Positions 3,783 to 25,539 of a stretch of DNA of 25,539 nucleotides are shown here, in pieces. The stretch comes from a virus. The stretch is from IMG/VR virus record IMGVR_UViG_3300040801_005248, positions 1 to 25,539 of that record; one strand, given 5' to 3'. The position numbers were made by a program, and so were the translations under genes. Under the pieces are notes generated by a model. That model made no database searches and had not been told where the DNA came from. It saw nothing but the letters and a program-made list of their open reading frames with translations. The first letter of the stretch is position 1. Each line of letters starts with the position of its first letter.

Positions 3783-3816
3783 AAAAGCCCGCCGATACCC
3801 CGGCGGGCTTTTTTTT
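3783..3816. terminator. Bidirectional intrinsic terminator between the convergent early operons
   Basis: AAAAGCCCGCCG-ATACCC-CGGCGGGCTTTT followed by T8 on the plus strand. The A-run on the other side serves the minus strand more weakly. Confidence 0.8.
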
Positions 3817-5723: not shown

Positions 5724-5740
5724 TGTGTGTTTTCTCCATA

Positions 5741-5843
5741 GTAGTAATGTTCAGTAGTAGGGGGGTGGTCAGTAATCAGATGTCAGTAATCAGATGTCAG
5801 TAATCAGACTACCGACTACTGACTACCGACTACTGACCGCCCC
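5741..5843 (-). repeat. Heptanucleotide tandem-repeat spacer forming a long imperfect hairpin (R1)
   Basis: The left arm (plus strand) is a GTCAGTAATCAGAT 14-mer (two heptamers), about three copies. The right arm is about 2.5 copies of CTACCGACTACTGA. The arms pair over 5762-5843 with 2x2 internal loops every 14 nt. Confidence 0.85.
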
Positions 5844-5911
5844 TTTTTCGACCAGGGCGACGCCCCAAAAATCGCGCCCAGGACGTGCGTATGCGTGCGT
5901 GCGCACGGTTT

Positions 5912-6445
5912 TTACAAGCCTTCGGCCTGAAATTCCATCTCTAAATCGTAGCAGGCCTGGCATAAATCCAGGGTACCCCAATCGGCCTCTCCCCACTGCG
6001 GTTTGAAGCGATGCACCGCCTCCGCCCCACAATCGCACCAGAGCCGGGGCTTTTTGGGTAGATTGTTTTGCCGCCTATACCAGCAGGCAGAACAAACCCG
6101 GTTGGAATGGGTGATTTTGCGGATACCGTTGAACCCAGGCGGCATAGGCCGCCCGCAGTCAAAACACTTGCGATTGTCCCGACTAACGAAACACTTGGGC
6201 CGCTTCCGCCCGTGGTTGCGCCGGTATTGATAGCAGCTCTGGCACAGCCCCCGCCCCCCGTGCTTAACTCGACCGCCAAAAGCGACGTGGCAATCAAGGC
6301 AGAACTCACCCGCGCTGACATTGAGACCGGCCCGAGGTCGCCGCCGGCCAGTGCGCCACCTGTAGGCATAGCACGCAATGCACTCGCTCCGCGAGTTCAT
6401 TGTGATTTGTGTTTCATCCCGCCCACAATTCCGACATCGTTTCAT
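5912..6445 (-). CDS. Four-fold tandem zinc-ribbon repeat protein (177 aa)
   Basis: Four CxxC-(13-19)-CxxC[YW] modules. The first three are followed by a basic Y.R...G..RP-type tail (CIACYAYRWRTGRRRP, CQSCYQYRRNHGRKRP, CSACWYRRQNNLPKKP). Confidence 0.7.
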   Translation of the reverse strand: MKRCRNCGRDETQITMNSRSECIACYAYRWRTGRRRPRAGLNVSAGEFCLDCHVAFGGRVKHGGRGLCQSCYQYRRNHGRKRPKCFVSRDNRKCFDCGRPMPPGFNGIRKITHSNRVCSACWYRRQNNLPKKPRLWCDCGAEAVHRFKPQWGEADWGTLDLCQACYDLEMEFQAEGL

Positions 6446-7248
6446 TTTTTGTACATCCTTTCCAGCCAGACGGCCACCGTACGCCGCCCTTCTTCGGTAT
6501 ACTGGTAGCCCTGATTTGGATGCCCAGGGCTACGCTCCGCGATGATGGCCGGGTTAGTGGTAAGCAAAAACTGAATTAAATCTTCATACGTGCCCCGCTC
6601 AAAGGGCTTTTTGGCCCCGACCCAATTTGTTTGAGCCATAGATTTCCCGGCTAGGGTTGCCCCGGCCCAAACGGCGAATTGGTCAATACTCACCCCCTCC
6701 GGCAGAAGCCCCAACCACGTCCCCGCATACCGCCCCCCGCCATCTTTTTTGATAATTTCAAGTTGAACTCTCCCCCCCCCCTCCACTGGGCCAGGAACCC
6801 CCACCCCCCCCTGCGTAGGTTGAGGAAGCGCAGGAGTCGCCGGCTCTCGACCGACAACAGTCTCTATCTCAAAGATAGAGTTGTTGGCAAAGGCAGAGCC
6901 AGACGCCCAAGCCCAGGCAAAGGCCAAGCCCGCCACAGGCACGGCGTACAGAGGCGACTGCAAGGCGAAGGCCATCGCCGGCGCGGAAATAAAGCCAACA
7001 ATCCCGGCCCAAATCGAAGCCCGGGCCAACGGAATTGACACGTTAGCCGTCATAGTCAGGCTTTGCACAGGCCGCCGCCGTGACCATTCCGCCACCTGGT
7101 CAATCGGGATAGGACTGGTACCAGCCCTCACGCTGTAGCTAGTATGGGTCGGTTGCCATTGGCCCCAGGCGGCAGGGCCAGGGCCGAGGCTTTGTTGTTG
7201 ATGATTAAATTCTTCATGGTGCGCTTTCCCGCAATGTGGACAGTACAT
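6442..7248 (-). CDS. Membrane protein with N-terminal zinc ribbon (268 aa)
   Basis: MYCPHCGKAHH at the N-terminus. Hydrophobic segments IPLARASIWAGIVGFISAPAMAFAL and AVPVAGLAFAWAWASG. The leader motif lies upstream. Confidence 0.7.
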   Translation of the reverse strand: MYCPHCGKAHHEEFNHQQQSLGPGPAAWGQWQPTHTSYSVRAGTSPIPIDQVAEWSRRRPVQSLTMTANVSIPLARASIWAGIVGFISAPAMAFALQSPLYAVPVAGLAFAWAWASGSAFANNSIFEIETVVGREPATPALPQPTQGGVGVPGPVEGGGRVQLEIIKKDGGGRYAGTWLGLLPEGVSIDQFAVWAGATLAGKSMAQTNWVGAKKPFERGTYEDLIQFLLTTNPAIIAERSPGHPNQGYQYTEEGRRTVAVWLERMYKK

Positions 7249-7255
7249 AATGGTC

Positions 7256-7269
7256 TCCTTTCGTGGTGG
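7256..7269 (-). promoter_or_regulatory. Leader motif CCACCACGAAAGGA (copy 6, minus strand)
   Basis: Exact reverse complement TCCTTTCGTGGTGG, 7 nt upstream of ATG 7248. Confidence 0.6.
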
Positions 7270-7274
7270 AAGTT

Positions 7275-7339
7275 TGATGTCAGTGGTCAGTAGTCAGTAG
7301 TCAGATATCCGATTACTGGCTACTGACTACTGACTGCTA
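7275..7339 (-). repeat. Heptanucleotide tandem-repeat spacer forming a ~26-bp hairpin (R2)
   Basis: 7279-7304 pairs with 7309-7334 (22 WC pairs, 3 G.T, 1 mismatch on the plus strand). The repeat starts at the TAG stop of gene 7337-7600. Confidence 0.85.
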
Positions 7340-7600
7340 TCGAATAATATACGCCACCTCCCCCGGCTTTAGATAATTCCGCGAGTGAGCGTAAACAACG
7401 GGCCGACCCTGGTCATCAGTCAGTATCGGCATCTGATCTGGTTCCGTACAGCCGATGTAATAGGGTGCGTACCGTTTGTCCGTCTGCAAACTCACAAATT
7501 GCGGTGCCGGTTGGAAGCGCCGCCGCACCGGGGGCGTGTAGCCCTGCGTCTTGAATGTTTCTCGTTTCGTTACCCTGCGTCCACTGATCGCCTGTCCCAT
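7337..7600 (-). CDS. Hypothetical protein (87 aa)
   Basis: AGGAGG lies 8 nt upstream of ATG 7600. Confidence 0.7.
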   Translation of the reverse strand: MGQAISGRRVTKRETFKTQGYTPPVRRRFQPAPQFVSLQTDKRYAPYYIGCTEPDQMPILTDDQGRPVVYAHSRNYLKPGEVAYIIR

Positions 7601-7837
7601 CTCAATGACCTCCTAAGATTTTACCAAATGAATAAACCAATAATTTGAATACCACCCGTACCAGCAAGCGAGTCGCCCAGGCCGAAGCCCAGGCCACCAG
7701 CCCCGCTACCCCAACCGCCACCGCTACCACGGCCTCAACCAACTAGGCCACCAACCGCACCAGCCACCCCGCCCCGCCCCGTGGGAGCAGGGCGAAATAA
7801 AAACCGTTTCTGTCCATCCGGGCTATCACTCTAAATG

Positions 7838-8023
7838 TCATAATTCAGTCACCACATAATAGCCGTAGACGCCAGTCGCCACCGCCCCCAGCAAAACAAC
7901 TATGGCCGCCAACTTCAATTCCAGGCTCATAAACCAAATGTCCACACAGGCCCGCAAGCCGATGATGAGCCACGCCGCCAAGACAATCCTAATCAACACG
8001 TCACGCCGTTTAAGCCACTTCAT
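7838..8023 (-). CDS. Small two-TM membrane protein (61 aa)
   Basis: GGGGAGGGGG lies 4 nt upstream of the ATG. Two hydrophobic helices. A holin-like role is only a guess. Confidence 0.6.
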   Translation of the reverse strand: MKWLKRRDVLIRIVLAAWLIIGLRACVDIWFMSLELKLAAIVVLLGAVATGVYGYYVVTEL

Positions 8024-8759
8024 AACGCCCCCTCCCCGTTTGCTTTAGTTTGCCCAGGGCCAAACCGTGGTTGATGATTTTATACGCCTGCGTCTTTTTG
8101 ACCGTCGCCCAGGCTTGCACGTCCGCCTGACCAAAAACGCCCCCAGCTTGCGCCAGCACCGCCTCAAGCCCCGCCTCAAGCGCGGCATCGTTCACCGTGG
8201 TTCGTGGTCGTTCGTGGTCGTTCACTCGTTCATAGTCGTTCAGTGAACGATGCGGGCGATTAGCCAGCCGCCGAGCGCGGGCCTCAGCCTTGCTCTCGGT
8301 AATGTCAGCCAGCCGCCGGTTGTGGTCGGTACTGAGAGCCAGCGAGACGTAGCCCACCCCGGCCAGCAAGAAAAACGAGGCCGGAGCGAGTGAGGCCAGC
8401 ACCGGGAAAATCTCCAGCAGGCTGGAAATGCTAACCCCAATCACAACGTAGGTCAGGGCCAGCACCGCCGCCAGTTCAAACGGGGCCGGGGGGTCGTTTT
8501 TGCGCCGGGTCTGATTGTAGGTCCACAGCTTCAAAGCATTGTGGGTGGCCGCTATCCCAATCAATTCGATGGTGGCCGCCATCAGCAGGGCCACCGGCCA
8601 AGGCGTTGCCAAATGCGCTTGGGCCGCCCTAGATATGAAATACGCCGGGGGGAGCGGGGCCAGCCAGGGGCCAAGCCGAGCCGCCACTTCTGTCAACAGG
8701 TTTTCCACATCGGTGATAGCCTGCTCCAGGTTCACAGGCCGATTTTCAATAAGTGCCAT
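8010..8759 (-). CDS. Multi-pass membrane protein with C-terminal wHTH-like tail (249 aa)
   Basis: Several hydrophobic segments. The C-terminus reads KKTQAYKIINHGLALGKLKQTGRGRYEV. The leader motif lies upstream. Confidence 0.7.
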   Translation of the reverse strand: MALIENRPVNLEQAITDVENLLTEVAARLGPWLAPLPPAYFISRAAQAHLATPWPVALLMAATIELIGIAATHNALKLWTYNQTRRKNDPPAPFELAAVLALTYVVIGVSISSLLEIFPVLASLAPASFFLLAGVGYVSLALSTDHNRRLADITESKAEARARRLANRPHRSLNDYERVNDHERPRTTVNDAALEAGLEAVLAQAGGVFGQADVQAWATVKKTQAYKIINHGLALGKLKQTGRGRYEVA

Positions 8760-8766
8760 TGTTGCT

Positions 8767-8780
8767 TCCTTTCGTGGTGG
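8767..8780 (-). promoter_or_regulatory. Leader motif CCACCACGAAAGGA (copy 5, minus strand)
   Basis: Exact reverse complement, 7 nt upstream of ATG 8759. It is preceded in sense orientation by hairpin 8789-8807 (AAGGCGG-ACAGT-CCGCCTT). Confidence 0.6.
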
Positions 8781-8857
8781 GAGTGTCTAAGGCGGACAGT
8801 CCGCCTTGGTAAATCCGAAGTTACTGGGTTTATGCGTTAAGTTCAATCCTTTCTGCC

Positions 8858-9070
8858 TCATGAGGCTTTGGTTAATAGTTGGTACAAATCATCAGACTGT
8901 TTCGCCCCGGTCAGTACGGCCCAGGCCAGTTGATGCGCTTCGGCCACTTGCTGGCTGTAAAGGCCGGGCGTATGCTCTTGCAAATCGGCCAGAGCTTCGC
9001 AGATTTTCTCCAGGCGCGACCCCGGGAAAACGATGCGGGGGTTCGCCCTGTAAATTGGGTTGTCGCTCAT
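8858..9070 (-). CDS. Hypothetical protein (70 aa)
   Basis: GAGG lies 7 nt upstream of ATG 9070. First gene downstream of the iteron array. Confidence 0.6.
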   Translation of the reverse strand: MSDNPIYRANPRIVFPGSRLEKICEALADLQEHTPGLYSQQVAEAHQLAWAVLTGAKQSDDLYQLLTKAS

Positions 9071-9126
9071 TTAAAAACCTCAAATCATTTTGATAGATGG
9101 ATTCTGTAATGTACTTCTATTTAAAG

Positions 9127-9231
9127 CATGTGTACCGTACATAAGCGGCTTATGTACCGTACATAAGGAAAATTTTACTTATGACAAGTCGCTTATGTAC
9201 CGTACATAAGCGGGATATGTACCGTACATAT
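9127..9231. repeat. Array of four palindromic iterons/operators (core TGTACCGTACA) plus one degenerate copy
   Basis: Centres lie at 9136, 9158, 9201 and 9223 (spacings 22/43/22 bp). Copies 2 and 3 are the 19-bp palindrome CTTATGTAC-C-GTACATAAG. The AT-rich stretch 9071-9126 adjoins the array. Confidence 0.85.
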
Positions 9232-9240
9232 TGAAATTAG

Positions 9241-10098
9241 TCATTCAGCCAGGTATCCCAGGTCTGAAAATGAGGCCTGTTGCCACTCCTGATGATTGAC
9301 ATTGTGAATCGTCAACCAGCGCCGATGTTCGGCTTGAAGCCGCCGGCTAAAATAACTGACCTCAATTTCGGTGAGCAAAGGCAAACTTTCCAAAACCTGA
9401 AACGTGTAAGCCGTTTTGCGCCCGGCCCCGGTGGTCATCGTGCGCACAATACGCCGCTCCGAAAGCTCCTGGAGCCAGCCCTTAATGCCAGCCCGTTGAT
9501 GGGGCGGGTTGCCCCAGGCCCGCCGGCCCAACAATTTGTACCGCTGTCCTTTGGCTGTAATATCAGCCAAAAGAGCAATTGCGGGCCACTTGCCCGTCAG
9601 GTTTTGGGCCTCATAGCCAAATGATTTCAGGGTGAGCCACAGCCCAAACGCCTCGCCTAGCACCGGTTGCCAGAAACGCACCGCATACACCGAGGGCGCA
9701 ACAAAGGCCCGCAACGGGTCAGTCTGTACCAGTTCCGTTTTGAAGCGCCCAGGGCCAGGGCCATCCGGGTCAGGCTGAGGCCAAACGCTCATTTGAGGTA
9801 TTTTCTGTGCTATCGGGTCTGATGGTGGTGGCCGCCCCACCACGTAATCAATATGGCCTATCGCCGCATCTTGGAGTAAGGCCGCCCGCTTGATGGTGTC
9901 ATCCAGCCGGTTACTTAACCATTGTTGAGCAAACGTATTTTTGACGTAAACTGTGAGAATGCCCGTCTCTTTGTCCAGCACCGCCCCGCTATCCTGAAAC
10001 CACGTATCAAACGTGGATTTGGTCATCTGTAACTTTAATTGGTTTAATGTATCGGCCCAGGCGGGCCAGGCCGGAAGGGGATTGACTGAGGGTGACAA
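9241..10098 (-). CDS. Replication-initiator-like protein with DnaA N-terminal-like domain (285 aa)
   Basis: WADTLNQLKLQMTKSTFDTWFQDSGAVL..LTVYVKNTFAQQWLSNRLDDTIKRA follows the DnaA_N pattern. TTG start with AAAGGAG 6 nt upstream. The iterons lie immediately 3' of the gene. Confidence 0.55.
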   Translation of the reverse strand: MSPSVNPLPAWPAWADTLNQLKLQMTKSTFDTWFQDSGAVLDKETGILTVYVKNTFAQQWLSNRLDDTIKRAALLQDAAIGHIDYVVGRPPPSDPIAQKIPQMSVWPQPDPDGPGPGRFKTELVQTDPLRAFVAPSVYAVRFWQPVLGEAFGLWLTLKSFGYEAQNLTGKWPAIALLADITAKGQRYKLLGRRAWGNPPHQRAGIKGWLQELSERRIVRTMTTGAGRKTAYTFQVLESLPLLTEIEVSYFSRRLQAEHRRWLTIHNVNHQEWQQASFSDLGYLAE

Positions 10099-10144
10099 AT
10101 GTAACTCCTTTCATAATTGATTAAAAGAAGCTACCAGAGGGAAA

Positions 10145-11041
10145 ATGAAACTTACCACCACGATTGAAGAATTTTTGATGGAAGCCAGGCTGAGCTTGGC
10201 CCCGGCCACGGTCAGCAAATACCAATCACATCTGCTTGGTTTTGCCGCCCACGTCGGCGACATCACCCTAAGCGACATCACCGCCCGCCACATCCGCACA
10301 TGGCGCGGAAGTTTGACGGATGCCCTATCACCCTATACAATCCACCAACGACAGCGAACATTACGTCGTTTTTTTAATTGGTGCCTTGACGAAGGCTATG
10401 TCAGCGCATCACCGGTGCGAACGGTGGCTTTCCCACCACTCCCCAAAGACCACCCGCCCCGCGCCATCTCAGCTTATGATTTACACCTAATGTTTCAGGC
10501 CGCTTTCAAGAGTGGACCCCGAGACTACGCCCTGGTTCGCTTCTTGGCCGATACCGGTTGCCGCATAGGCGGCCTGATCACGGCCAGAATAAGCGACTTG
10601 GACACGCAAAACAGAACCATTCTATTAACAGAAAAGGGGAATAAAACCCGCCCGGCCTGGTTTGGGAGTGAAACGGCCAACGCCTTACGCGCCTGGCTGG
10701 TCATTCGGCCCGACCACCCTTCAAACCGATTGTTTCTCAGTCAGCGGCCTGGCAGAGCGCCGGAGCCAATGACTACATCTGGCCCACGCCAGTTATTGAA
10801 ACGCCTGGCAGGGGAGATCGGAATTACCGGGCCGCATAATCCGCACGCCTTCCGCCACGCTTTCGCCCGGCGGATGCTGGCCAACGGCATGGACATCAGC
10901 GACTTAAGTCGCCTCATGGGGCATAGCTCCATCCAGGTCACGGCGAAGCATTACTTATGCTGGACAGCCGCCGAGTTGGGCCAGAAACACGCTCAATTTA
11001 ACTCGCTGGATGAAATAAAAATCACAACGAGGGATTTGTAG
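10145..11041 (+). CDS. int: Tyrosine recombinase / phage integrase (298 aa)
   Basis: Box I is ADTGCRIGGL. Then come HAFRHAFA (HxxR) and GHSSIQVTAKHY (H...Y nucleophile). The N-terminus is a SAM-like core-binding domain. Confidence 0.9.
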   Translation: MKLTTTIEEFLMEARLSLAPATVSKYQSHLLGFAAHVGDITLSDITARHIRTWRGSLTDALSPYTIHQRQRTLRRFFNWCLDEGYVSASPVRTVAFPPLPKDHPPRAISAYDLHLMFQAAFKSGPRDYALVRFLADTGCRIGGLITARISDLDTQNRTILLTEKGNKTRPAWFGSETANALRAWLVIRPDHPSNRLFLSQRPGRAPEPMTTSGPRQLLKRLAGEIGITGPHNPHAFRHAFARRMLANGMDISDLSRLMGHSSIQVTAKHYLCWTAAELGQKHAQFNSLDEIKITTRDL

Positions 11042-11063
11042 GCCCTCGCTGTACTACCACAAA

Positions 11064-11111
11064 AAGGGACTCATAAGCCCTTGGTCGTGTGTTCAAATCA
11101 CACCGTCGCCA
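11064..11111 (+). other. attP core: 3' half of a tRNA with CAU anticodon (Met or Ile2)
   Basis: Anticodon loop CTCATAA (11070-11076), variable region TGGTC, T-arm GTGTG-TTCAAAT-CACAC, 3' acceptor CGTCGCC plus discriminator A. No matching 5' acceptor or D-arm lies upstream. Confidence 0.7.
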
Positions 11112-11233
11112 TTCCCTCAAAAACAGGCGGTTTAAGGGGGGAGGGTGGGGCAAGTTTTGTTGCTTGCCCTCTGGTAGCTGGTTACTACGATTAAAATGTA
11201 TTCAGTTGTTAAGGTGCATTTTCAGGGGACAGC

Positions 11234-11269
11234 AAAGGCCCGATCACTGACACTGGTCGGGCCTTTTTT
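11234..11269. terminator. Intrinsic terminator shared by int (plus) and xis (minus)
   Basis: AAAGGCCCGA...TCGGGCCTTT stem followed by T6 on the plus strand. On the minus strand it directly follows the xis stop codon. Confidence 0.7.
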
Positions 11270-11471
11270 ATTCGTCTGTTCCCTGATTGCGCTTTTGGCG
11301 CAGGGCTTCAATATCTTCGGCAGGAATGAGCCAGGCCGAAGTCAGTTTGTCGGGGTCCACTTTAAAAGCATGGGGAAAATCGCCCCGGTGTAACCACAAA
11401 TGAATCGTGGTCTTGGCTACGCCAAACTCCATTGCGGCCTGTTCTACATTGTAGGGTCTATCGGTTGACAT
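11268..11471 (-). CDS. xis: Excisionase / MerR-type HTH DNA-binding protein (67 aa)
   Basis: YNVEQAAMEFGVAKTTIHLWLHRGDFP fits the excisionase-family HTH. Position is next to int/attP. Confidence 0.65.
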   Translation of the reverse strand: MSTDRPYNVEQAAMEFGVAKTTIHLWLHRGDFPHAFKVDPDKLTSAWLIPAEDIEALRQKRNQGTDE

Positions 11472-11493
11472 TATCGCCTGCCAAGTGTAAAGT
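11465..11493 (+). promoter_or_regulatory. Sigma70-like promoter for the moron cassette
   Basis: TTGACA (11465-11470), a 17-nt spacer, then TAAAGT (11488-11493). The -35 element overlaps the xis start codon. Confidence 0.5.
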
Positions 11494-11597
11494 TATACAG
11501 TAGATGGGCAGTGTACAGATTATTCGAAAATCTGTCAAGCCCGCTCTAAAATTTAGAAATGATAGTTATACCGCTTCGACGGGAAAGGAACTCTAAA

Positions 11598-11828
11598 ATG
11601 ACCTCACAAACGTGCGGGCACTGCAAATTTTGGGAACCATACGAAACAAACAAACAGCTTGGGAAGTGCCCAAACCTCGGTGTGATTATATTCGATAAAG
11701 GTGATGTGCTTGAAGCGTCACTCAATCATAAAAGATATACATTTTCTGATGGGCCTCCAGTTTCCGATGCGACAACCGTTAGAACAACTGAGGATTTTGG
11801 CTGTATTTGCTATCAACCCCGCATATAA
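11598..11828 (+). CDS. Small Cys-rich protein (76 aa)
   Basis: GGAAAGGAA RBS lies 8 nt upstream of ATG 11598. Motifs: CGHCKFW..GKC near the N-terminus and FGCICYQP near the C-terminus. Confidence 0.65.
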   Translation: MTSQTCGHCKFWEPYETNKQLGKCPNLGVIIFDKGDVLEASLNHKRYTFSDGPPVSDATTVRTTEDFGCICYQPRI

Positions 11829-11841
11829 CAAAAGCATCAAC

Positions 11842-11976
11842 ATGAACAACATCGACGCCATTATCACCTGGTGTATCTTCGGCCTAATGGTCTACATCTT
11901 CAGCCGCATCAATCAGCGCATCGAAAAAGCCGAGCCAGAGCCAGGGCCAGAAAACGAAAAAGAGCCACCGATATAA
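11842..11976 (+). CDS. Small single-TM protein (44 aa)
   Basis: MNNIDAIITWCIFGLMVYIFSRINQR followed by an acidic/Pro tail. ATG 11842 is in frame in ORF 11701-11976. The stop lies in the terminator loop. Confidence 0.5.
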   Translation: MNNIDAIITWCIFGLMVYIFSRINQRIEKAEPEPGPENEKEPPI

Positions 11977-11993
11977 AAATCGGTGGCTCTTTT
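11961..11993 (+). terminator. Terminator of the moron cassette
   Basis: AGAGCCACCGAT-ATAAAA-ATCGGTGGCTCT (12-bp perfect stem) followed by TTT. Confidence 0.65.
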
Positions 11994-12030
11994 CGTACCA
12001 TGACCGTCAATAAACCCAAAAATGAAAGGT

Positions 12031-12077
12031 GTCGGCCAGCCAGGGGGCGGGCTGGGGGGGGACCCCGGCCAACCGAC
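12031..12077 (-). other. GC/G-run-rich hairpin at the late-operon 3' end (possible terminator)
   Basis: 12031-12041 pairs with 12067-12077. The three A.C/C.A mismatches on the plus strand become G.U pairs on the minus strand. Only an interrupted T-rich tail follows on the minus strand. Confidence 0.35.
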
Positions 12078-12121
12078 AAAAAAAATTTTAGCAGGTTTGG
12101 ACGCCGGCGCAAATCAGATTA

Positions 12122-13816
12122 TCACATCCAAACGACCCAAATATTCAGGGCATACGTCCCACTGCCGCCCACCCGATACGCCACAAACGACCCGTCAGTT
12201 TTCAACTTGAGCCAGAATTGACTACCCCCAATATTATAGCCCCCGCTGGTGCCCAGGGAGTAGGACCCACTGCCCGCCACGCCACTGCTGGTTCCTTCCT
12301 TCCGTACCACAAACATCGTCCGTACCGCAATCTCAACCGCTCCCACTGGCAAAATCTCCACCTCAGACGTGCTAATCCCTGTAAACTCAAAATACAAGCC
12401 CAGGCTGGTGGCCTCCACCGTCCGCAGACCAGCATAAACCATATTCCAATCAACCGCCCCTGCCGGCAAACTCAATTGATTAGAGCCGGTCATCTCTTCC
12501 TGTGCTTCCAATAAATCTACCAATCCAGCTACATCGCCCCAACCAGCTCCCCCGCCCCCCAGCTCCCCAGCCTCCCCGCTTTCATCCCCGCCCCCCCAAC
12601 TCCCCCGGGCCAACGTCGCCCCCACTTCCAGACCCCCCACCGTGATTTCCTGCTCAAACACCCCCGCCCCACAAATTTCCCAATAACGCACCACCCGCGC
12701 CGACGAAATGGCACTCCCGCCCCACGGCGGCACACCCACGCTAACCACATCATGCACCCGCAACTGATAATTTGGCCTGGTTAGCAATTTGCCCGTAATC
12801 CGTTTGCTCAACCACAAATCCAACTCAGCCGAAGCCCGGGCCTCGCACTGGGCCGAAGTGGTCAAAGTCGAATCCCGTACCACCAGCCAGCGATAGCCAT
12901 GCGCTGAAACCTCCGCGCTATCCTCAGCCGTACCCGTCACCCCGTCGCCCTCGACCCTAACCGCATTGTACCGCGCCGAAGCCTGCGCTACCTCAGTGCC
13001 AGGCAGAAGCGGATGGCCCGACCCGTCCCAGGCGTAAGCGTAAGCCCCGCCCTCCCCGTCGGTTAGCCGCCGCGCGCCAAACACGCCGCCCGGTTTGGCG
13101 TAAAGCTCAAAGTCAGTCTTATTCATCAGCGACCGTACCAACTGATCTGCGTTGGTGAATTGCCCCGCCGTAAAATCAACTGTCACCCCAAACAAACCGG
13201 CATCAAGGCCGGTCAGGCCCGCCGCCCTCAATATCGCATCCACAATCACGGCCACATCTTGCCCCGCCCACGTCGTTTCCGTTTGATACCGGAATCGCCG
13301 TAACTTGCCCCAGCCATCCAAACAATGTACCAGCACCAGCCCTTGACCCGCATCGTGGACAAATTGCACACTTTCCACCCACACGCGAGGCAGAGCTTCC
13401 AGCACCCGCACCCCATTCAGCCATTGGCCCCGGCTCAAATCCACCGCCAGCCCCGGCCAGGCCCCCGCCGTGGCTCCAAATTGATTACCCCGATTGTCCA
13501 ACCACAGCGACAAGCCGCCCGGCTCTCTAGCCACTTCCTGATAACGATAGCGCACCACGTCCGCCGACAAATCAGAGCCGCCCATCAGCAAAGAAACAAC
13601 CGGCGAGTTGGTAATCAGTACCTTTTGTGCCGCTTCCAGGCTGTAAGCGGGTGCAGGCCGAGGCCCAAAGCCGACCCGCAACACAAACCCGGCCAACAAG
13701 TCTGTTGACCGGGCATCATAGCCAATGGTCTGAATCCTCTGCGCACCGGAGCGATAGGCATCAGGATCAAAATGCCGTACATCCGGCAGATAAACAGACC
13801 GTCTACCAACAAACAT
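12122..13816 (-). CDS. Large tail protein (564 aa), function unresolved
   Basis: Last and second-largest gene of the virion module. The C-terminus is Gly-rich and beta-rich. No specific motif recognised. Confidence 0.6.
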   Translation of the reverse strand: MFVGRRSVYLPDVRHFDPDAYRSGAQRIQTIGYDARSTDLLAGFVLRVGFGPRPAPAYSLEAAQKVLITNSPVVSLLMGGSDLSADVVRYRYQEVAREPGGLSLWLDNRGNQFGATAGAWPGLAVDLSRGQWLNGVRVLEALPRVWVESVQFVHDAGQGLVLVHCLDGWGKLRRFRYQTETTWAGQDVAVIVDAILRAAGLTGLDAGLFGVTVDFTAGQFTNADQLVRSLMNKTDFELYAKPGGVFGARRLTDGEGGAYAYAWDGSGHPLLPGTEVAQASARYNAVRVEGDGVTGTAEDSAEVSAHGYRWLVVRDSTLTTSAQCEARASAELDLWLSKRITGKLLTRPNYQLRVHDVVSVGVPPWGGSAISSARVVRYWEICGAGVFEQEITVGGLEVGATLARGSWGGGDESGEAGELGGGGAGWGDVAGLVDLLEAQEEMTGSNQLSLPAGAVDWNMVYAGLRTVEATSLGLYFEFTGISTSEVEILPVGAVEIAVRTMFVVRKEGTSSGVAGSGSYSLGTSGGYNIGGSQFWLKLKTDGSFVAYRVGGSGTYALNIWVVWM

Positions 13817-13825
13817 TAATCAGTC

Positions 13826-14275
13826 CTACTCTTCAAAAATAAGCTTGGCCCGCACGTTGACCCCCGCCGGAGCCGTGCAGACTATCCCCAGCCTGTCCCC
13901 GCCGCCAATAATCGGCTCCTGTCCCAGCGGGTAGCGTATCTCATAGCCCTGTTGAGGATGAACTTCAATCACATCCAGGGCATCGGACGTTGTCGGTTCA
14001 GCCGTGGCCGTATGCTGGGCCGATGTTTGGAGCGTTTCGGCCAGACTGTCATCCAACTTAACCGGGGTCAGGCTGGACATTGTGCCAGCCGTGCTTTGCC
14101 GGCTGACAGTCACCTGCACCGGTTCAGCCGTGACCGATGTCCCGTCAAAAAACACGCCCCAGCCCAAGACCTTCACCCGATGATTGGCCGGAGCCACAAT
14201 TTGCAACACGGTTTTGGCCGTAGCCGCCGTAAGAGCGACCTCGCTTGTTTGCGCCACACCAATAAATGCACTCAT
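13826..14275 (-). CDS. Small beta-rich virion-associated protein (149 aa)
   Basis: GAGG lies 5 nt upstream of ATG 14275 (GTG 14281 is also possible). It sits within the tail module. Confidence 0.6.
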   Translation of the reverse strand: MSAFIGVAQTSEVALTAATAKTVLQIVAPANHRVKVLGWGVFFDGTSVTAEPVQVTVSRQSTAGTMSSLTPVKLDDSLAETLQTSAQHTATAEPTTSDALDVIEVHPQQGYEIRYPLGQEPIIGGGDRLGIVCTAPAGVNVRAKLIFEE

Positions 14276-14290: not shown

Positions 14291-14340
14291 GAATTAAGAA
14301 TTAAGAATTAAGAATTTTTGACCCCTGACCCCTGAAACTC
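14291..14340 (-). repeat. In-register heptamer repeats, no hairpin (R3)
   Basis: Plus strand: (GAATTAA)x3, GAATTTTT, (GACCCCT)x2, GAAACTC. Sense strand: (AGGGGTC)x2 then (TTCTTAA)x3. Confidence 0.85.
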
Positions 14341-14346
14341 GTTTTG

Positions 14347-14535
14347 ACCTCCCCCCCCACCCCCTCTACCACCACAGACCCCCCACCCCCCTTGCAGGAG
14401 TTGGAAAGCTGTAAACAAACCAGAAACTTCAAGCTAAACCGCAACATCCAGCGAAAGAACAAGGACACACAGCCAAGACACAGCCAAGAGACAGCCAAGA
14501 GACAGCCAAGAGACAAGGCAAAGACAGGCCAGACA
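14347..14535 (-). repeat. Composite intergenic element, copy A
   Basis: Block 1 (14347-14399) matches 21338-21390 at 51/53. Block 2 (14417-14485) matches 21409-21477 at 68/69. Tail of 11-mer repeats (AGAGACAGCCA)x3. Confidence 0.9.
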
Positions 14536-17502: not shown

Positions 17503-17572
17503 TAGAAATTAGAAATTAGACGTCAGATGTCAGCAGTCAGATTACCGACTACCGACTACTGACTACTGCTTA
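17503..17572 (-). repeat. Ten in-register heptamers including a hairpin (R6)
   Basis: Sense strand: TAAGCAG TAGTCAG TAGTCGG TAGTCGG TAATCTG ACTGCTG ACATCTG ACGTCTA ATTTCTA ATTTCTA. The first TAA is the capsid gene stop. 17522-17540 pairs with 17545-17563. Confidence 0.85.
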
Positions 17573-19591
17573 CGCTACATTATTTTTGTGAATGCCCCGA
17601 TAGCCATCCACGCCCACGGCAAATTCATCACGGACTTTAATCGGGAGCTTATCGTTGGTGAACATCAGGCCGCCCAATTCACTTTGAGCCGTGAAGATCT
17701 CCGGAAGCGGGTGTTCCCGACCGCTGGCATCCTGACCATAGGTCATATGGATGACCGGGAAAAGCATCGGGTCAACGATGGCGGCCCAATCCGTGGCGTC
17801 AGTCCAATCAGGCACGGCCACCGGCACCGGACGAGGGTCAGCCGGGCCACGGTCATTGTAATTGGCGTCGTGAGCCGTCGGCACGGCATCGCTGTAGCCA
17901 AAATTATCCAGGGCTTGCCGATACAGATCGCCCGGCACCAGACAGTACTTAGGCCAGAAGCCCAGGCGTTTACCGCTTCCAATTTCAGTCTGCTTGAAAA
18001 CCGCCAACGAAGCCGCATTCCAAGCGGTCGTATCCGAACCCAAAGCCGTCGTCAACAAGTTGTTATGGTCGGCGTGGAACAAGGCCGTACTGTCCTGGCT
18101 TAAGGTCGGGCCAACGCCGCTATTGCTGGTAAAAATGGCACTGACCGCCGCCGAACGAGTACGCACCGCCGCCACCGCCAGAGAGCGAGGCACAACCTGA
18201 AGGCGCTGGATGTCAGAGTTCAAAATCATATTGCGGGTGATGGACAGATAGCCGCCTTTTTTGTCCCAGCTGTCGCTCTCTTTGGCGTCGTCAATCTCAA
18301 GCTCGGTGTAGGCCGCCCCATCGCTCACATCGGGCAAATCCCCTACCCCCCCAAAAGAAATCCACTGCATGTCGTGTCTACTACCATCGTTGGGTTCCAG
18401 CTTGGTAATCAACTCAAACCAGCGATACAGCTGTAAGTAGGTCCAGTGCTGAATAATGACCTTATTCATAGCGTTGACCGCCATCCCCGGCAACGTCACC
18501 GGCGAGGCCCCCGCCAACTCAACCCGGCTGGCATCAAACACACCGTGAAACGCGACATCACCAGAGGCGGCCACATAAATATCACGGAAACTGCGCCGGT
18601 TAGGCGGAGGCGTATCCGCCCCATCCACCCCAAAAATCCAATCAACATCATTTTGCGCCCGGTCAAGACCCGTTACTTGGCCCTCCAACCGGGTTCCTGT
18701 CTCCCGTTCCCGGGGAGCATGGCCCATCCCGGTCACGGCAGAGCCTTGGCCCAGCCGTTCCAGGGCCGATTGCAGGTCATCAATCTTTTGCTCAAGCCGA
18801 GCCGTGGCCTGGCTATCCGAGTCCAGATCAACAACCTGCGACTCGCCAGACAGAGCCGCCTCAATCAGCCTCGCAATGCGCCGCTGATAGGCTTTCTGGT
18901 CACCGTCCCGTTGCAATTGCTCATCGAAAACCTCTACAAGCTCATTCAGCAAGCCCTCATTGCTGGGTTCGTGACCTTCCTCATAAGTCACTTTCGTTTC
19001 TTCAGTACCACTCATAGCAAATTCCTCCATCAATAATTTATTAAGGCTCAATTGAGCACGAGCCATAGATAACATTTCCAACAAACGACCATCAGCCGCC
19101 GGGCCAAAAACCACATCGCAACTAATCACCTTCTGAATTTCAGTCAGCCGCCTGATACCCTCCCCATCTTCTTCAAACGCTCCGTAAAAATGGAGACTAA
19201 AGCCGATGTCGGGCACGGCCGCGCCAGTCTCCGCATCTTCGACCAAATCGTCCAGCAGTTCAGCCAGCCACGCCAGATCAGAGCGACTATACAAACTCAG
19301 CTTACCCGTTACGTCCCCGTCAGCATAAGTCACGGCAGAGAATACCCCCGCCGTTTTTTCAACTGAAGGCGACTGGAGCCAGCCGGGATGATCCACCAAA
19401 CAGCCCGCCCCCTCGAACAAGCCCCGTTCAACCGCATCCTGTAACACCGGAGCCGGAATAAATATATCCCCCGGCGTACCGTCCGCAAACACCACCCGCC
19501 CCGCTTTAATCAAGCGTACCAAATACTGCCGCCGTTTGCCGGTGGCCGCCAGCGATATCTCACTCTGGAGTCTCATTACTTCCACTGTCAC
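17570..19591 (-). CDS. Major capsid protein (HK97-fold-like C-terminal half) fused to a long N-terminal protease/scaffold-like region (673 aa)
   Basis: Position is directly after portal. The middle is a charged coiled-coil (EEGHEPSNEGLLNELVEVFDEQLQRDGDQKAYQRRIARLIEAAL). The C-terminal ~330 aa show capsid-like patterning (KKGGYLSITRNMILNSDIQ..LFHADHNNL..YCLVPGDLY). The start is uncertain (GTG 19585 has the best AGGAGG spacing). Confidence 0.6.
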   Translation of the reverse strand: MTVEVMRLQSEISLAATGKRRQYLVRLIKAGRVVFADGTPGDIFIPAPVLQDAVERGLFEGAGCLVDHPGWLQSPSVEKTAGVFSAVTYADGDVTGKLSLYSRSDLAWLAELLDDLVEDAETGAAVPDIGFSLHFYGAFEEDGEGIRRLTEIQKVISCDVVFGPAADGRLLEMLSMARAQLSLNKLLMEEFAMSGTEETKVTYEEGHEPSNEGLLNELVEVFDEQLQRDGDQKAYQRRIARLIEAALSGESQVVDLDSDSQATARLEQKIDDLQSALERLGQGSAVTGMGHAPRERETGTRLEGQVTGLDRAQNDVDWIFGVDGADTPPPNRRSFRDIYVAASGDVAFHGVFDASRVELAGASPVTLPGMAVNAMNKVIIQHWTYLQLYRWFELITKLEPNDGSRHDMQWISFGGVGDLPDVSDGAAYTELEIDDAKESDSWDKKGGYLSITRNMILNSDIQRLQVVPRSLAVAAVRTRSAAVSAIFTSNSGVGPTLSQDSTALFHADHNNLLTTALGSDTTAWNAASLAVFKQTEIGSGKRLGFWPKYCLVPGDLYRQALDNFGYSDAVPTAHDANYNDRGPADPRPVPVAVPDWTDATDWAAIVDPMLFPVIHMTYGQDASGREHPLPEIFTAQSELGGLMFTNDKLPIKVRDEFAVGVDGYRGIHKNNVA

Positions 19592-21304: not shown

Positions 21305-21337
21305 AAGCAACCTACTAACTACCGACTACTGATTTTA

Positions 21338-21498
21338 ACCTCCCCCCCCACCCCCTCTACCACCACAGAACCCCCGCCCCCCTTGCAGGAAACCAGAAAC
21401 CAGAACTAAAACCAGAAACTTCAAGCTAAACCGCAACATCCAGCGAAGGAACAAGGACACACAGCCAAGACACAGCCGACAGAGCCGACACAGCCAGG
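21338..21498 (-). repeat. Composite intergenic element, copy B
   Basis: Same two conserved blocks as copy A, in the same orientation, directly after the TerL stop (TAG 21499-21501). Confidence 0.9.
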
Positions 21499-23489: not shown

Positions 23490-23948
23490 TCACAAATCCC
23501 ACTCAGACCCAAGCTCAGAATTGACCTCATCAAACAACGTCCCCAACGCCCCCAGCAGTCCATCAGCCGCATCCCCGCTTAAAGCCCGTTGGTCACGCAA
23601 TAGTCTCCCGATTCGGCTGGCGTTTTGGCCGTGGAGCGTCAGCAGTTTAATCATATCGGCCAGCTCTACGCCGCCCTGACTGCTCTTCTCCTGAATATAG
23701 GCACTCAACTGAGCCTGCCGATTGAAAACATCCTCCAACACATCGCCGATATCGTTCAATTCCATAGTTGGAGCCGAGTAATAGCCGTGCTTTTCGGCGT
23801 TGCTATTGCCCTCCGGTGCGCCAACCAGTGCGCCGCCATGAGAAGCGCATCGAGGCGGGCTTGAGCCACGCATAGACCAAGCCTTGCATTGTCGGCCATC
23901 ATTCGGATACCGATATTCGCATTTCCGAGAAACGTAAGCGGAGCACAT
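23490..23948 (-). CDS. Terminase small subunit-like protein (152 aa)
   Basis: N-terminal 4-Cys module plus HGGALVGAPEGNSNAEKHGYYS (the GN.NA.KHG.Y motif common in small terminases). First large gene of the late operon, upstream of terL. Confidence 0.45.
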   Translation of the reverse strand: MCSAYVSRKCEYRYPNDGRQCKAWSMRGSSPPRCASHGGALVGAPEGNSNAEKHGYYSAPTMELNDIGDVLEDVFNRQAQLSAYIQEKSSQGGVELADMIKLLTLHGQNASRIGRLLRDQRALSGDAADGLLGALGTLFDEVNSELGSEWDL

Positions 23949-24024: not shown

Positions 24025-24034
24025 TGATACTCCC

Positions 24035-24075
24035 AAAAAAAAAGGGGGCGACATCGTAAAACCGACGCCGCCCCC
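24035..24075 (-). terminator. Strong intrinsic terminator immediately upstream of the late operon
   Basis: Minus-strand RNA: GGGGGCGGCGUCG-GUUUUA-CGAUGUCGCCCCC (13 bp including 2 G.U) followed by U9. On the plus strand the two G.U positions are A.C mismatches. Confidence 0.8.
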
Positions 24076-24384
24076 ACTGTAGAGGATAAACACACAGTAA
24101 AATTATCGCACAAATGTTCGCTAAGTCAACCTCTTGTGCAACTTGACCTATAAAACCAGCTCTTCCGGAGGCTTCAGTGGCCAGATTCATTGTGCAGGTT
24201 GCCATAGATTGAATCCGGTATTTTTTTATACAGTGAATCGTCCCCCAAGTCGCCGCCTTCTCCAAACCATAAAAGCGGGATGCCCTTGCTGGCTACGTGG
24301 CGGGCGGTCAGAGGGGGGCTGTTTTTTTCCGAGGCTTCACCTTTGGCCGAGGGTGGATGCCTTTGGCGCGGGCTTGTGCCCGGC

Positions 24385-24412
24385 GTGGATGCGGCAAAAA
24401 ACGCCGCTCCAC
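24385..24412 (+). other. A-loop hairpin a (GTGGA-t-GCGGC AAAAAAC GCCGC TCCAC)
   Basis: 10 bp with one bulge and a 7-nt A-rich loop. Confidence 0.6.
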
Positions 24413-24468
24413 CACGCCTAGAAGCTACCAGCACCCAGCACCTGCGCCGAGTTGTGCCCCGGCGCTCA

Positions 24469-24485
24469 GGCCGAAAAACACGGCC
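24469..24485 (+). other. A-loop hairpin b (GGCCG AAAAACA CGGCC)
   Basis: 5-bp perfect stem and 7-nt A-rich loop. A GCGCCG/CGGCGC hairpin (24444-24465) lies just upstream. Confidence 0.6.
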
Positions 24486-24533
24486 TCAACGCCGGAGCGA
24501 AGCCTATCAATGGCCGAGGGTGGGCGGCATACG

Positions 24534-24550
24534 CTGGCAAAAACAGCCAG
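24534..24550 (+). other. A-loop hairpin c (CTGGC AAAAACA GCCAG)
   Basis: 5-bp perfect stem with a loop identical to hairpin b. Confidence 0.6.
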
Positions 24551-24620
24551 ACGCAAGCCGCAGGGGAGTAGCTTCGCCCTTCCGGCAGGCTTTGCCCATC
24601 TCGACCTCGGTTCAGTTTAG

Positions 24621-24714
24621 TTTTTTTTGGCGGGCGGGGCGGTAACATCCCCAGCCCCAACTCCCTTAACCCGAATCGCCTTACAGACCGCGCCTAACCG
24701 CCCGCCAAAAAAAA
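24621..24714. other. Long-range perfect 17-bp helix I (T8GGCGGGCGG / CCGCCCGCCA8)
   Basis: 24621-24637 pairs with 24698-24714, all Watson-Crick. 4-5 further pairs follow after a TAA bulge. Confidence 0.75.
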
Positions 24715-24715
24715 C

Positions 24716-24777
24716 GCAGGCAAGCAAAAGCCTTGGCTAGATAAAAAAAAGCCTCCGCCCGGCTTTTGCTTGCCTGC
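24716..24777. other. Perfect 17-bp helix II (GCAGGCAAGCAAAAGCC / GGCTTTTGCTTGCCTGC)
   Basis: 24716-24732 pairs with 24761-24777. The 28-nt loop contains A8. It starts 1 nt after helix I ends. Confidence 0.75.
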
Positions 24778-24897
24778 ATCCGTCAAAAACTCCGCTCCTC
24801 CCCTCCCCTTTTTTTTGTGCAAGTTCCCGGAGGGATGCCGCACTTTTCTTGTCTGGCAATTTCATTTGCAGAACAACCGAGTCTGCACTTGTGGGCC

Positions 24898-24931
24898 GCA
24901 ATTTTTTAAGCACGTTAGCTTAAAAAATTGC
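24898..24931. promoter_or_regulatory. 14-bp perfect inverted repeat, operator candidate
   Basis: GCAATTTTTTAAGC-acgtta-GCTTAAAAAATTGC, 38 bp upstream of the -35 of the candidate early promoter. A second palindrome TTTTGCC-AA-GGCAAAA lies at 24950-24965. Confidence 0.55.
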
Positions 24932-24968
24932 TTGTTGTGCCATAGAAACTTTTGCCAAGGCAAAACCA

Positions 24969-24997
24969 TTGCCAGCCTGCGAAAAAGCGCGGCTAAT
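24969..24997 (+). promoter_or_regulatory. Candidate sigma70-like rightward early promoter
   Basis: TTGCCA (24969-24974), a 17-nt spacer, then GCTAAT (24992-24997), 61 nt upstream of ATG 25058. Confidence 0.4.
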
Positions 24998-25057
24998 TCA
25001 CTTTTTAAAAACAAAGTCGGCTTTTGCCGCCACCACCATCATTTTAAGGAGTTTACC

Positions 25058-25309
25058 ATGCTACACCCACAAAATTTTCGTCAAGTCTCAGGCTCTGCCG
25101 TCGGCCACCGCGCCCAGCGCTGGCACGTGGGCCGCTCGTCTCGCTCATTCACCGGGCACGTAGTCCGGGCCCTTTTCACCAACCACGCCCATGCCGCCGC
25201 TTTTGCCCGCTCCGCCTCCGCCCGCCTAGGGCGCTCGGTTTCCATCCGTCGTTACAAAGGCGGCTGGCTTGTGTCTGTGCCCGTCCAGGCTCGCAAGGTG
25301 GTGTCATAA
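25058..25309 (+). CDS. Arg-rich basic small protein (83 aa)
   Basis: AAGGAG lies 5 nt upstream of ATG 25058. 12 Arg in 83 aa. The C-terminal region reads AAAFARSASARLGRSVSIRRYKGGWLVSVP. The long upstream ORF extension from 24770 has no support. Confidence 0.65.
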   Translation: MLHPQNFRQVSGSAVGHRAQRWHVGRSSRSFTGHVVRALFTNHAHAAAFARSASARLGRSVSIRRYKGGWLVSVPVQARKVVS

Positions 25310-25539
25310 TGCTCATCGGTGTTACTGGTTCTCGCCGTTTCCAGCCTCGTCCCGTCGTTGGCGCTGTCCTGCGTGCGCTCCAGCCCTCGTCCGTGTTCGT
25401 TGGCTGCGCCCGTGGCGCAGATAAAGCCGTTCGCCAAGCCTTTCCCTCGGCTCGCGTGTTTCGCGCCGCTGGCCCCCTGCCCCATCAGCTTGTAGCGCGC
25501 TCCGTATCACTGGTTCATGCCGTGGCCGCTGGCTCTGGC
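25309..25539 (+). CDS. DprA/SLOG-like Rossmann-fold protein, 5' part (continues at 118-393)
   Basis: ATG 25309 overlaps the upstream TAA (TAATG). MLIGVTGSRRF...VGCARGADKAVRQAF. It is in frame with ORF 34-393 across the repeat. Confidence 0.5.
   Translation, partial: MLIGVTGSRRFQPRPVVGAVLRALQPSSVFVGCARGADKAVRQAFPSARVFRAAGPLPHQLVARSVSLVHAVAAGSG
25423..25539. repeat. Terminal direct repeat, identical to 1-117
   Basis: Same comparison. This is either an assembler overlap of a circular molecule or a physical terminal redundancy. Confidence 0.97.

Follow-up and report, generated by a model that had tools for sequence, protein, structure and literature searches.

The IMG/VR virus record IMGVR_UViG_3300040801_005248 contains, within positions 24385 to 24561, three hairpins (H1, H2 and H3; Table 1) that present an A-rich heptaloop on stems of differing sequence and that are a real and non-random hairpin family in the control region of a phage. 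The window analyzed here, that is the whole stretch of 25,539 nucleotides (nt), is a complete circular phage genome with a unit of 25,422 bp, because its ends (1-117 and 25423-25539) were identical over 117 bases in an overlap check. The gene starting at 25309 runs on across this closure into window position 1. The hairpins lie in a gap of about 1.03 kb between two divergent operons, the late operon, which is read on the minus strand from 24024, and a rightward operon, which is read from 25058.

An earlier note on this DNA, made from the sequence alone, had listed the three hairpins with their stem and loop sequences and a 10-bp extension of H1, and all of these were found again in place; the start-to-start distances are 78 nt from H1 to H2 and 65 nt from H2 to H3. 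When the intergenic region was shuffled 3000 times with preservation of dinucleotides, a mean of 0.14 such hairpins was obtained, and the probability of finding three or more was 7e-4. In addition, H1, H2 and H3 each carry a second perfect 5-bp helix at most 6 nt away from the inner stem, across a bulge or an internal loop. For random flanks, the chance of such an outer helix is about 0.057 for each hairpin and about 2e-4 for all three. The plus strand of the whole genome has just four hairpins that combine a perfect 5-bp stem with an A5-containing loop, three of them being H1, H2 and H3, and a relaxed genome scan added only a weak fourth member, H4, which is again located in the control region. 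All four of these A-loop hairpins of the plus strand stand in one region and in one orientation. H4 lacks an outer helix and contains one T.G pair that is a legal wobble on the plus strand only; from its position, it would lie in the 5' leader of the gene for an 83-aa protein that opens the rightward operon. Whereas H4 had rightly been named as a weaker relative of the three, two further candidates of the earlier note (441-462 and 403-422) were unconvincing as family members, and the hairpin at 403-422 has a T-loop on the plus strand.

Among the four copies, all five pair positions show double, pairing-preserving changes. These changes were counted by hand; MAFFT put H1 to H4 out of structural register. 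H1 and H2 are carried by two paralogous modules, M1 and M2, with 5' flanks that are about 80% identical, and between them 8 of the 10 stem bases are changed while all five pairs are kept. As far as such a comparison within one sequence can tell, this suggests selection on structure and is the best internal evidence for it. The conserved loop, the variable but compensated stems and the outer helices across bulges argue for a function as a folded single strand, because a kept loop on a variable stem is the reverse of the pattern of a dimeric operator in duplex DNA. Loop-reading RNA-binding proteins select for conservation of the loop with variable, paired stems.

The stretch between the two operons (24025-25057) has no credible coding frame and is non-coding, as had been maintained before. 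Every open reading frame (ORF) in it obtained a codon-usage score of about 0, no Shine-Dalgarno sequence could be read in it except for that of the 25058 gene, and its 121-aa ORF is not a called gene on any record. Six-frame fragments of the stretch gave no tblastn match in 75 related loci, and the JGI gene calls on an identical contig place no gene across 24025-24472.

Relatives were sought by way of the small terminase TerS, TerL, the 83-aa protein and the product of the gene that follows it, in IMG/VR, JGI metagenomes, GTDB genomes and a set of 5.8 billion protein clusters. The phage is an orphan, with the nearest TerS in the latter set being 61% identical, and its intergenic DNA had no match in the phage database (distant mode) or by blastn in the 75 related loci. 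The intergenic DNA of the relatives neither aligns with that of the window nor contains the hairpins. For the expectation that relatives should preserve the hairpins, the outcome was formally negative but is uninformative at this distance, and the element is known from one clone only and defines no family. In the relatives, the junction has the order integrase, attP (the 3' half of a tRNA-Asn), a divergently transcribed gene for a ribbon-helix-helix repressor of 54-56 aa, promoter-operator units, a small hydrophobic ORF and TerS. One to three units of a promoter with a palindromic operator (TTGACA-AGAAC-N4-GTTCT-TAGAAT) are present, and each is followed by a short hairpin-terminated transcript. 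Of this layout, TerS, the small ORF and the final promoter-terminator unit are all that can be recognized in the window. A homologue of the relatives' repressor was not found in the window, the integrase and the probable tRNA-Met-derived attP lie about 13 kb away from the control region, and the place of the repressor gene is filled by about 0.8 kb of unique, ORF-free, self-complementary sequence that includes H1, H2 and H3.

Tentatively, we favor the reading that H1, H2 and H3 are protein-binding hairpins of folded RNA in a non-coding transcript of the control region, comparable to nut/boxB or to a decoy RNA, although we consider this possible rather than likely. The hairpins, perhaps together with H4, would act as folded single strands, most likely as RNA, and would show copies of one A-rich heptaloop (U-rich in the case of a minus-strand transcript) on interrupted stems of 10-14 bp that differ in sequence. 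Such an array would offer a multi-site platform for one loop-specific RNA-binding protein, on a non-coding transcript of the ~800 bp that the late promoter (24129->24102) and the region of the rightward promoter (~24920-24997) enclose. A small basic protein bound there might set the progress of RNA polymerase or of the ribosome into a flanking operon, as lambda N does on nut/boxB, and the candidate binder would be the 83-aa product of the first downstream gene, with H4 in the leader of its own message; alternatively, the RNA might titrate this protein, as CsrB and RsmZ do with theirs. Transcription, strand, binding protein and regulatory outcome of H1, H2 and H3 are in this account what we infer. 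Control by structured RNA and terminators is a habit of the family at this junction, because the relatives have a repressor gene and promoter-to-terminator RNA units there. The host is probably a member of the Chloroflexota, because relatives of the TerL were found in metagenome-assembled genomes of Anaerolineae and other Chloroflexota, some of them as prophages. A bolder version, which we regard as improbable, is that the RNA replaces the ribbon-helix-helix repressor of the relatives, that three identical A-rich (or U-rich) heptaloops, displayed on unrelated stems, recruit the Arg-rich protein to RNA polymerase or titrate it, and that the element represents an undescribed class of nut-like or decoy RNAs in Chloroflexota phages.

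The 83-aa protein is indeed as rich in Arg as the earlier note had stated, with 12 Arg, 6 His, neither Asp nor Glu and a pI of 12. In a single-sequence AlphaFold2 model, residues 1-32, the Arg-rich N-terminal part, are predicted to be disordered and residues 33-76 to form a beta-alpha-beta-beta domain (pLDDT 72-92). Its link to the hairpins consists of position and charge only.

In several respects the arrangement resembles lambda nut/boxB, a parallel that had been drawn before. Both systems have short G+C-rich 5-bp stems with purine- or A-rich loops, repeated within a non-coding leader of a temperate phage. The gene that comes next codes for a strongly basic small protein, partly disordered, and terminator-like hairpins follow further downstream. 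Lambda has a long hairpin between nutL and the start of N; the gene of the 83-aa protein is separated from H1-H3 by two such long hairpins, both perfect. However, the features that define boxB (loop type, boxA and an N-family protein) were not found. BoxB has a GNRA-like pentaloop that begins with G (GAAAA, GAAGA), whereas the present loops (AAAAAAC, AAAAACA, AAAAACA and AAAAAG) are 6-7 nt long and lack a leading G, and boxB stems are nearly identical between copies, whereas those of H1-H4 differ. When both strands around H1-H4 were read, no boxA (CGCUCUUUA-like) was encountered, the nearest sequence being CGCUCAGG before H2. Three copies are clustered here instead of one per operon, and no promoter was found upstream of them. 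The 83-aa protein matches no N family and shares with N only its Arg-richness and disorder, and the host of the phage is probably a member of the Chloroflexota and not an enterobacterium.

The decoy RNAs CsrB and RsmZ likewise are non-coding RNAs with a series of hairpins of unrelated stems and the same short loop motif, and CrcZ has A-rich motifs that are bound by Hfq/Crc. The present loops, in contrast, contain no GGA, there are only three to four copies, and neither a known partner nor evidence for a discrete RNA accompanies them; membership in the Csr/Rsm type was therefore rejected on the lack of GGA, and the resemblance is one of design only. We know of no decoy RNA family of the Csr, Rsm or Crc type from a phage of this kind. 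A search of the literature for comparable systems yielded only an analogy to the ANTAR dual hairpins, which also are small tandem hairpins with kept loops and varying stems that are read by an antiterminator protein. ANTAR targets, however, consist of two hexaloops of the type AxxGxx (A1, G4), the second of which overlaps a terminator, whereas the heptaloops described here contain no G, overlap no terminator and have no ANTAR protein. The likeness to nut/boxB and to decoy RNAs is thus of design and not of family, because the features that mark membership were absent. If the hairpins are RNA sites for a loop-binding protein, they would constitute a system of processive antitermination or of protein titration that has no sequence relationship to lambda N/nut. 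It would belong to a group of phages, probably infecting Chloroflexota, in which gene regulation is essentially undescribed, and an RNA element would take the place that a protein repressor has in the relatives. As DNA sites or relics, the hairpins would be nothing unusual for a control or packaging region of a phage.

A number of observations weigh against a role as folded RNA. The claim that the hairpins are a selected structural motif and not a sequence repeat is supported by the comparison of M1 with M2, but H1 and H3 share GGC-A5-NN-GCC (11 of the 13 central bases) and differ only in two compensated outer pairs; a really different stem, with four compensated pairs, is found in H2 only. 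A covariance model trained on H1 and H3, a check that the earlier note had proposed, recovered only itself and did not significantly find H2 (E = 0.83). Upstream of H1-H3, no sigma-70-type promoter was detected on either strand, and the single strong match is downstream of the hairpins and directs transcription away from them. The two strands differ little in folding (z = -6.07 for the plus strand versus -5.22 for the minus strand of the 511 nt at 24280-24790), and in local 120-nt windows the strand that is favored varied without a pattern. The G.U pair that closes the internal loop in H2 and H3 is legal on the minus strand only, the reverse of the wobble in H4, and such a mixture is expected of DNA palindromes that drift by transitions. 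Other intergenic regions of the genome are equally or more structured, with z-scores of -4 to -7; strong folding alone is not distinctive here, because these regions reach z = -7. DNA-type repeats fill the same stretch as H1-H3. Rfam at gathering thresholds gave no match over the whole window, GOLLD and ROOL included, and at E <= 5 returned only generic hairpin (miRNA-type) matches far below threshold. The sole other copies of the region are short contigs from three other samples that are 100% identical over the parts covered, and upstream of TerS the relatives contain neither A-loop hairpins nor any other hairpin family with a shared loop. Finally, the 83-aa protein has no Pfam or PHROG match and no homologue among the 5.8 billion protein clusters, and a Foldseek search with its model gave no significant match in the PDB.

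Some of these observations would suit a site for nucleoprotein assembly on duplex DNA, either a repressor loop that bridges the promoters or a packaging site of the cos/pac type for TerS, in which the hairpins would be never-extruded A-tracts with G+C-rich dyads. We consider this explanation almost as probable as the RNA reading. The stretch is situated immediately upstream of the TerS operon and between divergent promoters, its two strands fold equally with wobbles on both, and it contains three 20-nt direct repeats. The only significantly enriched hexamers are A6/T6 runs, which are strongly enriched, and TTGTGC, of which 6 of the 9 plus-strand copies in the genome are in the control region (binomial 3.4e-7, Bonferroni 0.0014) and which occurs in the spacers of both promoters, like the operator half-sites of the relatives. 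Contigs of low coverage, which represent this phage in three other samples, end without exception inside the region (L073 at 24472, L075 at 24680 and L074 at 24696); these breaks could reflect physical genome ends, but can also be put down to inverted repeats and homopolymers. Known cos/pac regions (lambda cosB with R1-R3 and sites for IHF; lactococcal cos) are also non-coding stretches upstream of the small-terminase operon with direct or inverted repeats and A-tracts. However, in the window a promoter and a terminator intervene between the repeats and TerS, the relatives have no comparable large spacer of a packaging type upstream of TerS, and compensated hairpin stems are no feature of known cos/pac sites. 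Nothing ties the 20-nt repeats or the seven TTGTGC boxes near terS to the TerS protein, and the TerL, 27% identical to that of any cultured phage, is too distant to infer cos or pac. Furthermore, dimeric DNA binders keep their half-sites and tolerate change in the spacer, whereas here the half-sites differ and the spacer is kept; on duplex DNA there would be no reason for outer helices that span bulges, and by reading, boxes and A-tracts are not helically phased. A functionless relic, in which a module of about 70-80 bp was locally duplicated in tandem and template-switching (quasi-palindrome correction) created and perfected short inverted repeats, in a spacer that was left when an int-attP-repressor module was lost or moved, appears somewhat less probable to us, though it is a serious rival as well. 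Recent local duplication is evident from M1, M2 and the 20-nt repeats, the relatives keep int, attP and repressor at the junction from which int and attP of this phage are about 13 kb away, neither conservation nor a family match was found, and palindromes and repeats generally abound between the genes of this genome. On the other hand, eight pairing-preserving stem changes beside flanks of 80% conservation are hard to obtain without selection, all three hairpins have outer helices, and a small phage genome of 25 kb seldom retains 0.8 kb of junk. The sequence is also identical in four samples, though these perhaps hold just one clone.

That ~24160-24940 as a whole folds independently into a single large non-coding RNA comparable to GOLLD or ROOL, with a 25-nt inverted repeat closing a multi-branched domain that contains H1-H3, is hardly probable. 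The 511-nt fold on the plus strand (z = -6.07) does include the closing helix and keeps H1-H3 in both the minimum-energy and the centroid structures, the stretch is long, ORF-free and highly structured as in those RNAs, and an AT-rich hairpin with a U-rich tail at 24898-24940 could end a plus-strand transcript. The earlier note had offered this class as an alternative, but its covariance models gave no match, and in contrast to GOLLD and ROOL the stretch has no tRNA neighborhood, no homologues in the databases searched, hence no support from covariation, and no evidence for a discrete transcript. In addition, no promoter was found, much of the z-score of the region stems from two simple perfect hairpins, and the long-range helices are mutually exclusive, with GGCGGGCGG occurring twice and CCGCCCGCC only once. 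Least probable of all is a mobile element resembling a miniature inverted-repeat transposable element (MITE), a non-coding insertion of 410 bp at 24298-24707 bounded by the 25-nt imperfect inverted repeats as its termini; size, terminal repeats, self-complementarity and the lack of coding capacity would fit, and the segment is absent from the relatives, but no target-site duplication is visible on reading its ends and no second copy exists in the genome, the phage database or the related loci.

Several candidate functions for the hairpins or their region were rejected. H1-H3 are not intrinsic terminators, as no T-run follows them on either strand and the A/T run is inside the loop. ARAGORN finds no tRNA or tmRNA in the window; a 5-bp stem with a 7-nt loop has the geometry of an anticodon arm, yet neither strand has U33 or a purine at position 37. 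Antisense targets for H2 and H3, suggested by complementarity of 13 to 18 nt to 4988-5005 and 563-580, were dismissed, as 25 kb should contain about 10 13-mer matches of this kind by chance alone. For a replication origin and for attP there are better candidates elsewhere in the genome, at 9126-9236 and at ~11060-11115, respectively, and no tRNA-derived core is present in the hairpin region.

Beyond the hairpins, the stretch is a control region with divergent promoters, DNA-type repeats and neighboring inverted repeats stronger than H1-H3, which the earlier note had overlooked. The neighboring structures include the 18-bp and 17-bp inverted repeats and the 14-bp palindrome. The 17-bp repeat has the shape of a strong intrinsic terminator for transcription of the minus strand, and the right arm of the 18-bp repeat competes with the arm at 24298-24322 for its partner. 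The palindrome is operator-like, is also terminator-like on the plus strand and overlaps the -35 element of the candidate rightward promoter, downstream of which only H4 is located. For an 11-bp pairing of CACCUUUGGCC with GGCCGAGGGUG, the wobbles are legal on the plus strand only. The second and the third of the 20-nt repeats sit just 5' of H1 and H3, and a TTGTGC box stands exactly 17 nt before the inner stem of H1 and likewise of H2. An inverted pair of these boxes flanks the -35 element of the late promoter and another box falls within the spacer of the candidate rightward promoter; judging by the analogous GTTCTG of the relatives, TTGTGC is probably a half-site of a regulator of this phage. 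Smaller repeats and stems quoted in the earlier note were all present: TGGCCGAGGGTGG, a 13-mer, has just two copies, at 24344 and 24511, both within a 20-nt repeat, GTGGATGC occurs at 24353 and 24385 with three reverse-strand copies elsewhere, and by direct reading GCGCCG/CGGCGC forms a stem at 24444-24465 and AGGCTTC at 24332 can pair with GAAGCCT at 24499. On the minus strand, the terminator stands between the late promoter and the small ORF with its ribosome-binding site, and terminator-like hairpins that would need read-through are present in both flanking operons.

Table 1. Positions of the hairpins, control-region elements and genes in the window (arrows run in the direction of reading; folds are RNA folds given per strand).
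Feature	Position	Strand	Remarks
H1, inner hairpin	24391-24407		GCGGC-AAAAAAC-GCCGC; perfect 5-bp stem, 7-nt loop
H1, extended	24385..24412		GTGGA-(T)-GCGGC / AAAAAAC / GCCGC-TCCAC; outer GTGGA/TCCAC (24385-24389 / 24408-24412) across one-base T bulge; -18.8 kcal/mol, z -3.9 (+); -20.0 kcal/mol, z -3.6 (-)
H2, inner hairpin	24469-24485		GGCCG-AAAAACA-CGGCC; perfect 5-bp stem, 7-nt loop
H2, extended	24459..24495		CCGGCG-CTC-AGGCCG / AAAAACA / CGGCCT-CAA-CGCCGG; on minus strand internal loop closes to a 14-pair stem with one G.U; -21.7 kcal/mol, z -4.85 (+); -28.7 kcal/mol, z -6.55 (-)
H3, inner hairpin	24534-24550		CTGGC-AAAAACA-GCCAG; perfect 5-bp stem, 7-nt loop
H3, extended	24524..24561		GCGGC-ATA-CG-CTGGC / AAAAACA / GCCAG-A-CG-CAA-GCCGC; -20.3 kcal/mol, z -4.5 (+); -25.0 kcal/mol, z -5.7 (-)
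H4, weak fourth member	24977..24992	+	CTGCG / AAAAAG / CGCGG; z ~ -2
Module M1	24366-24415	+	GCGC.G..TTGTGCCC(C)GGCG-N4-5-hairpin
Module M2	24444-24493	+	as M1; paralogous
Three 20-nt direct repeats	24341-24360, 24373-24392, 24508-24527	+	75% identity to the first
TTGTGC boxes	24134, 24190, 24374, 24452, 24815, 24935	+	
TTGTGC box	24108-24113	-	
Imperfect 25-nt inverted repeat	24298-24322 / 24683-24707		80% complementary; encloses H1-H3; closing helix of plus-strand minimum-energy fold
Perfect 18-bp inverted repeat	24620-24637 / 24698-24715		GTTTTTTTTGGCGGGCGG / CCGCCCGCCAAAAAAAAC; 60 nt between arms; z -4.3 (+), -3.5 (-)
Perfect 17-bp inverted repeat	24716-24732 / 24761-24777 (element 24707..24777)	-	followed by G-T8; -40.9 kcal/mol, z -6.7
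Perfect 14-bp palindrome, AT-rich	24898..24931		GCAATTTTTTAAGC-ACGTTA-GCTTAAAAAATTGC; z -4.6 on plus strand
Late promoter	24129->24102	-	TTGACT-16-(TG)GATAAT; sole strong sigma-70-type match in the region
Intrinsic terminator	24075->24034	-	13 pairs (10 G-C), then T9; 27 nt downstream of late promoter; equivalent hairpin at same place in relatives
Candidate rightward promoter (tentative)	24920..24948	+	TTAAAA-17-TAGAAA; TTGTGC box in spacer
Small hydrophobic ORF, 41 aa	23899..24024	-	first of late operon; overlaps TerS start; kept in relatives
Small terminase (TerS) gene, 152 aa	23948->23493 (element 23490..23948)	-	
TerL-like gene	23055->21502	-	
Portal gene	20882->19563	-	
Protease-capsid fusion gene	19591->17573	-	
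Tyrosine integrase gene	10145-11038	+	
Initiator gene	10098->9244	-	DnaA_N domain
Gene for 83-aa orphan protein	25058..25309	+	first of rightward operon; AAGGAG 6 nt before ATG

Across the relatives, a strong sigma-70-type promoter, a terminator within about 30-45 nt and a hydrophobic ORF of 41-54 aa that overlaps TerS form a layout that is kept (window 24034-24129 on the minus strand; L010 4780-4879 and 5022-5057; L009 5004-5039; L076-L078 at about 3090-3400). By analogy with lambda pR'-tR', this suggests that the late genes may be controlled by antitermination, or else by a short leader RNA. The loci of three of these relatives were read over L076 2586-3500, L077 2500-3500 and L078 2494-3500; in L078, the complete tRNA stands at the border between the prophage and host dnaG-rpoD. 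All three contain a hairpin in which the loop C(U/C)GUCACCC is kept on differing stems (GCCGCCGGG, GCCGGCG and GGGCAG), and in L077 and L078 the 3' arm of the terminator upstream of it has the sequence of this loop as well. To judge from these three sequences, this hairpin appears to be a separate leader-RNA motif with covarying stems.

The two candidates named above for the origin and attP are distinct elements. At 9126-9236, 4.8 copies of a partly palindromic 22-nt repeat (GCATATGTACCGTACATAAGCG) abut the gene for the DnaA_N initiator and are the probable replication origin; the scanned segment that includes them had the strongest fold z-score (-7.2) measured over positions 1-14160. Directly after the integrase gene, at ~11060-11115, a tRNA-Met-like 3' fragment with the anticodon-loop CTCATAA, the T-arm GTGTG-TTCAAAT-CACAC and the 3' end CGCCA is the probable attP core.

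Composition and repeats set other parts of the genome apart. In the first two genes of the rightward operon (window 25001-25539 plus 1-500) the G+C content is 0.62-0.66 and T far exceeds A on the coding strand; because this differs from the rest of the genome, a recently acquired module is suggested. Genes of the same operon are separated at 1260-1289, 2540-2569, 919-961 and 3773-3822 by G+C-rich hairpins that recur (GGGCGGCYTGGCCCASGCYGAGCCGCCC), by a hairpin of 21 bp and by a canonical bidirectional terminator. Arrays of the heptamer GTCAGTA/TACTGAC form intergenic hairpins of 20-25 bp at 5757-5849, 7268-7346, 17504-17582 and 21312-21332, of which at least that at 17504-17582 has a U-rich tail when read on the minus strand, and these arrays may be terminators or attenuators. 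Inside the late operon, a non-coding segment of about 150 nt is present in two copies of about 90% identity (14337-14512 and 21328-21483), in which the minus strand, that is the mRNA strand, is very G-rich (G5-G8) and then shows tandem repeats of 9-11 nt (ACAGCCAAGAG on the plus strand). The conserved box CCACCACGAAAGGAA(A/C) is a common element of 5' untranslated regions or ribosome-binding sites and precedes several start codons, at 971-993, 1290-1312 and 3164-3186 on the plus strand and at 5113-5130, 7256-7273 and 8767-8784 on the minus strand.

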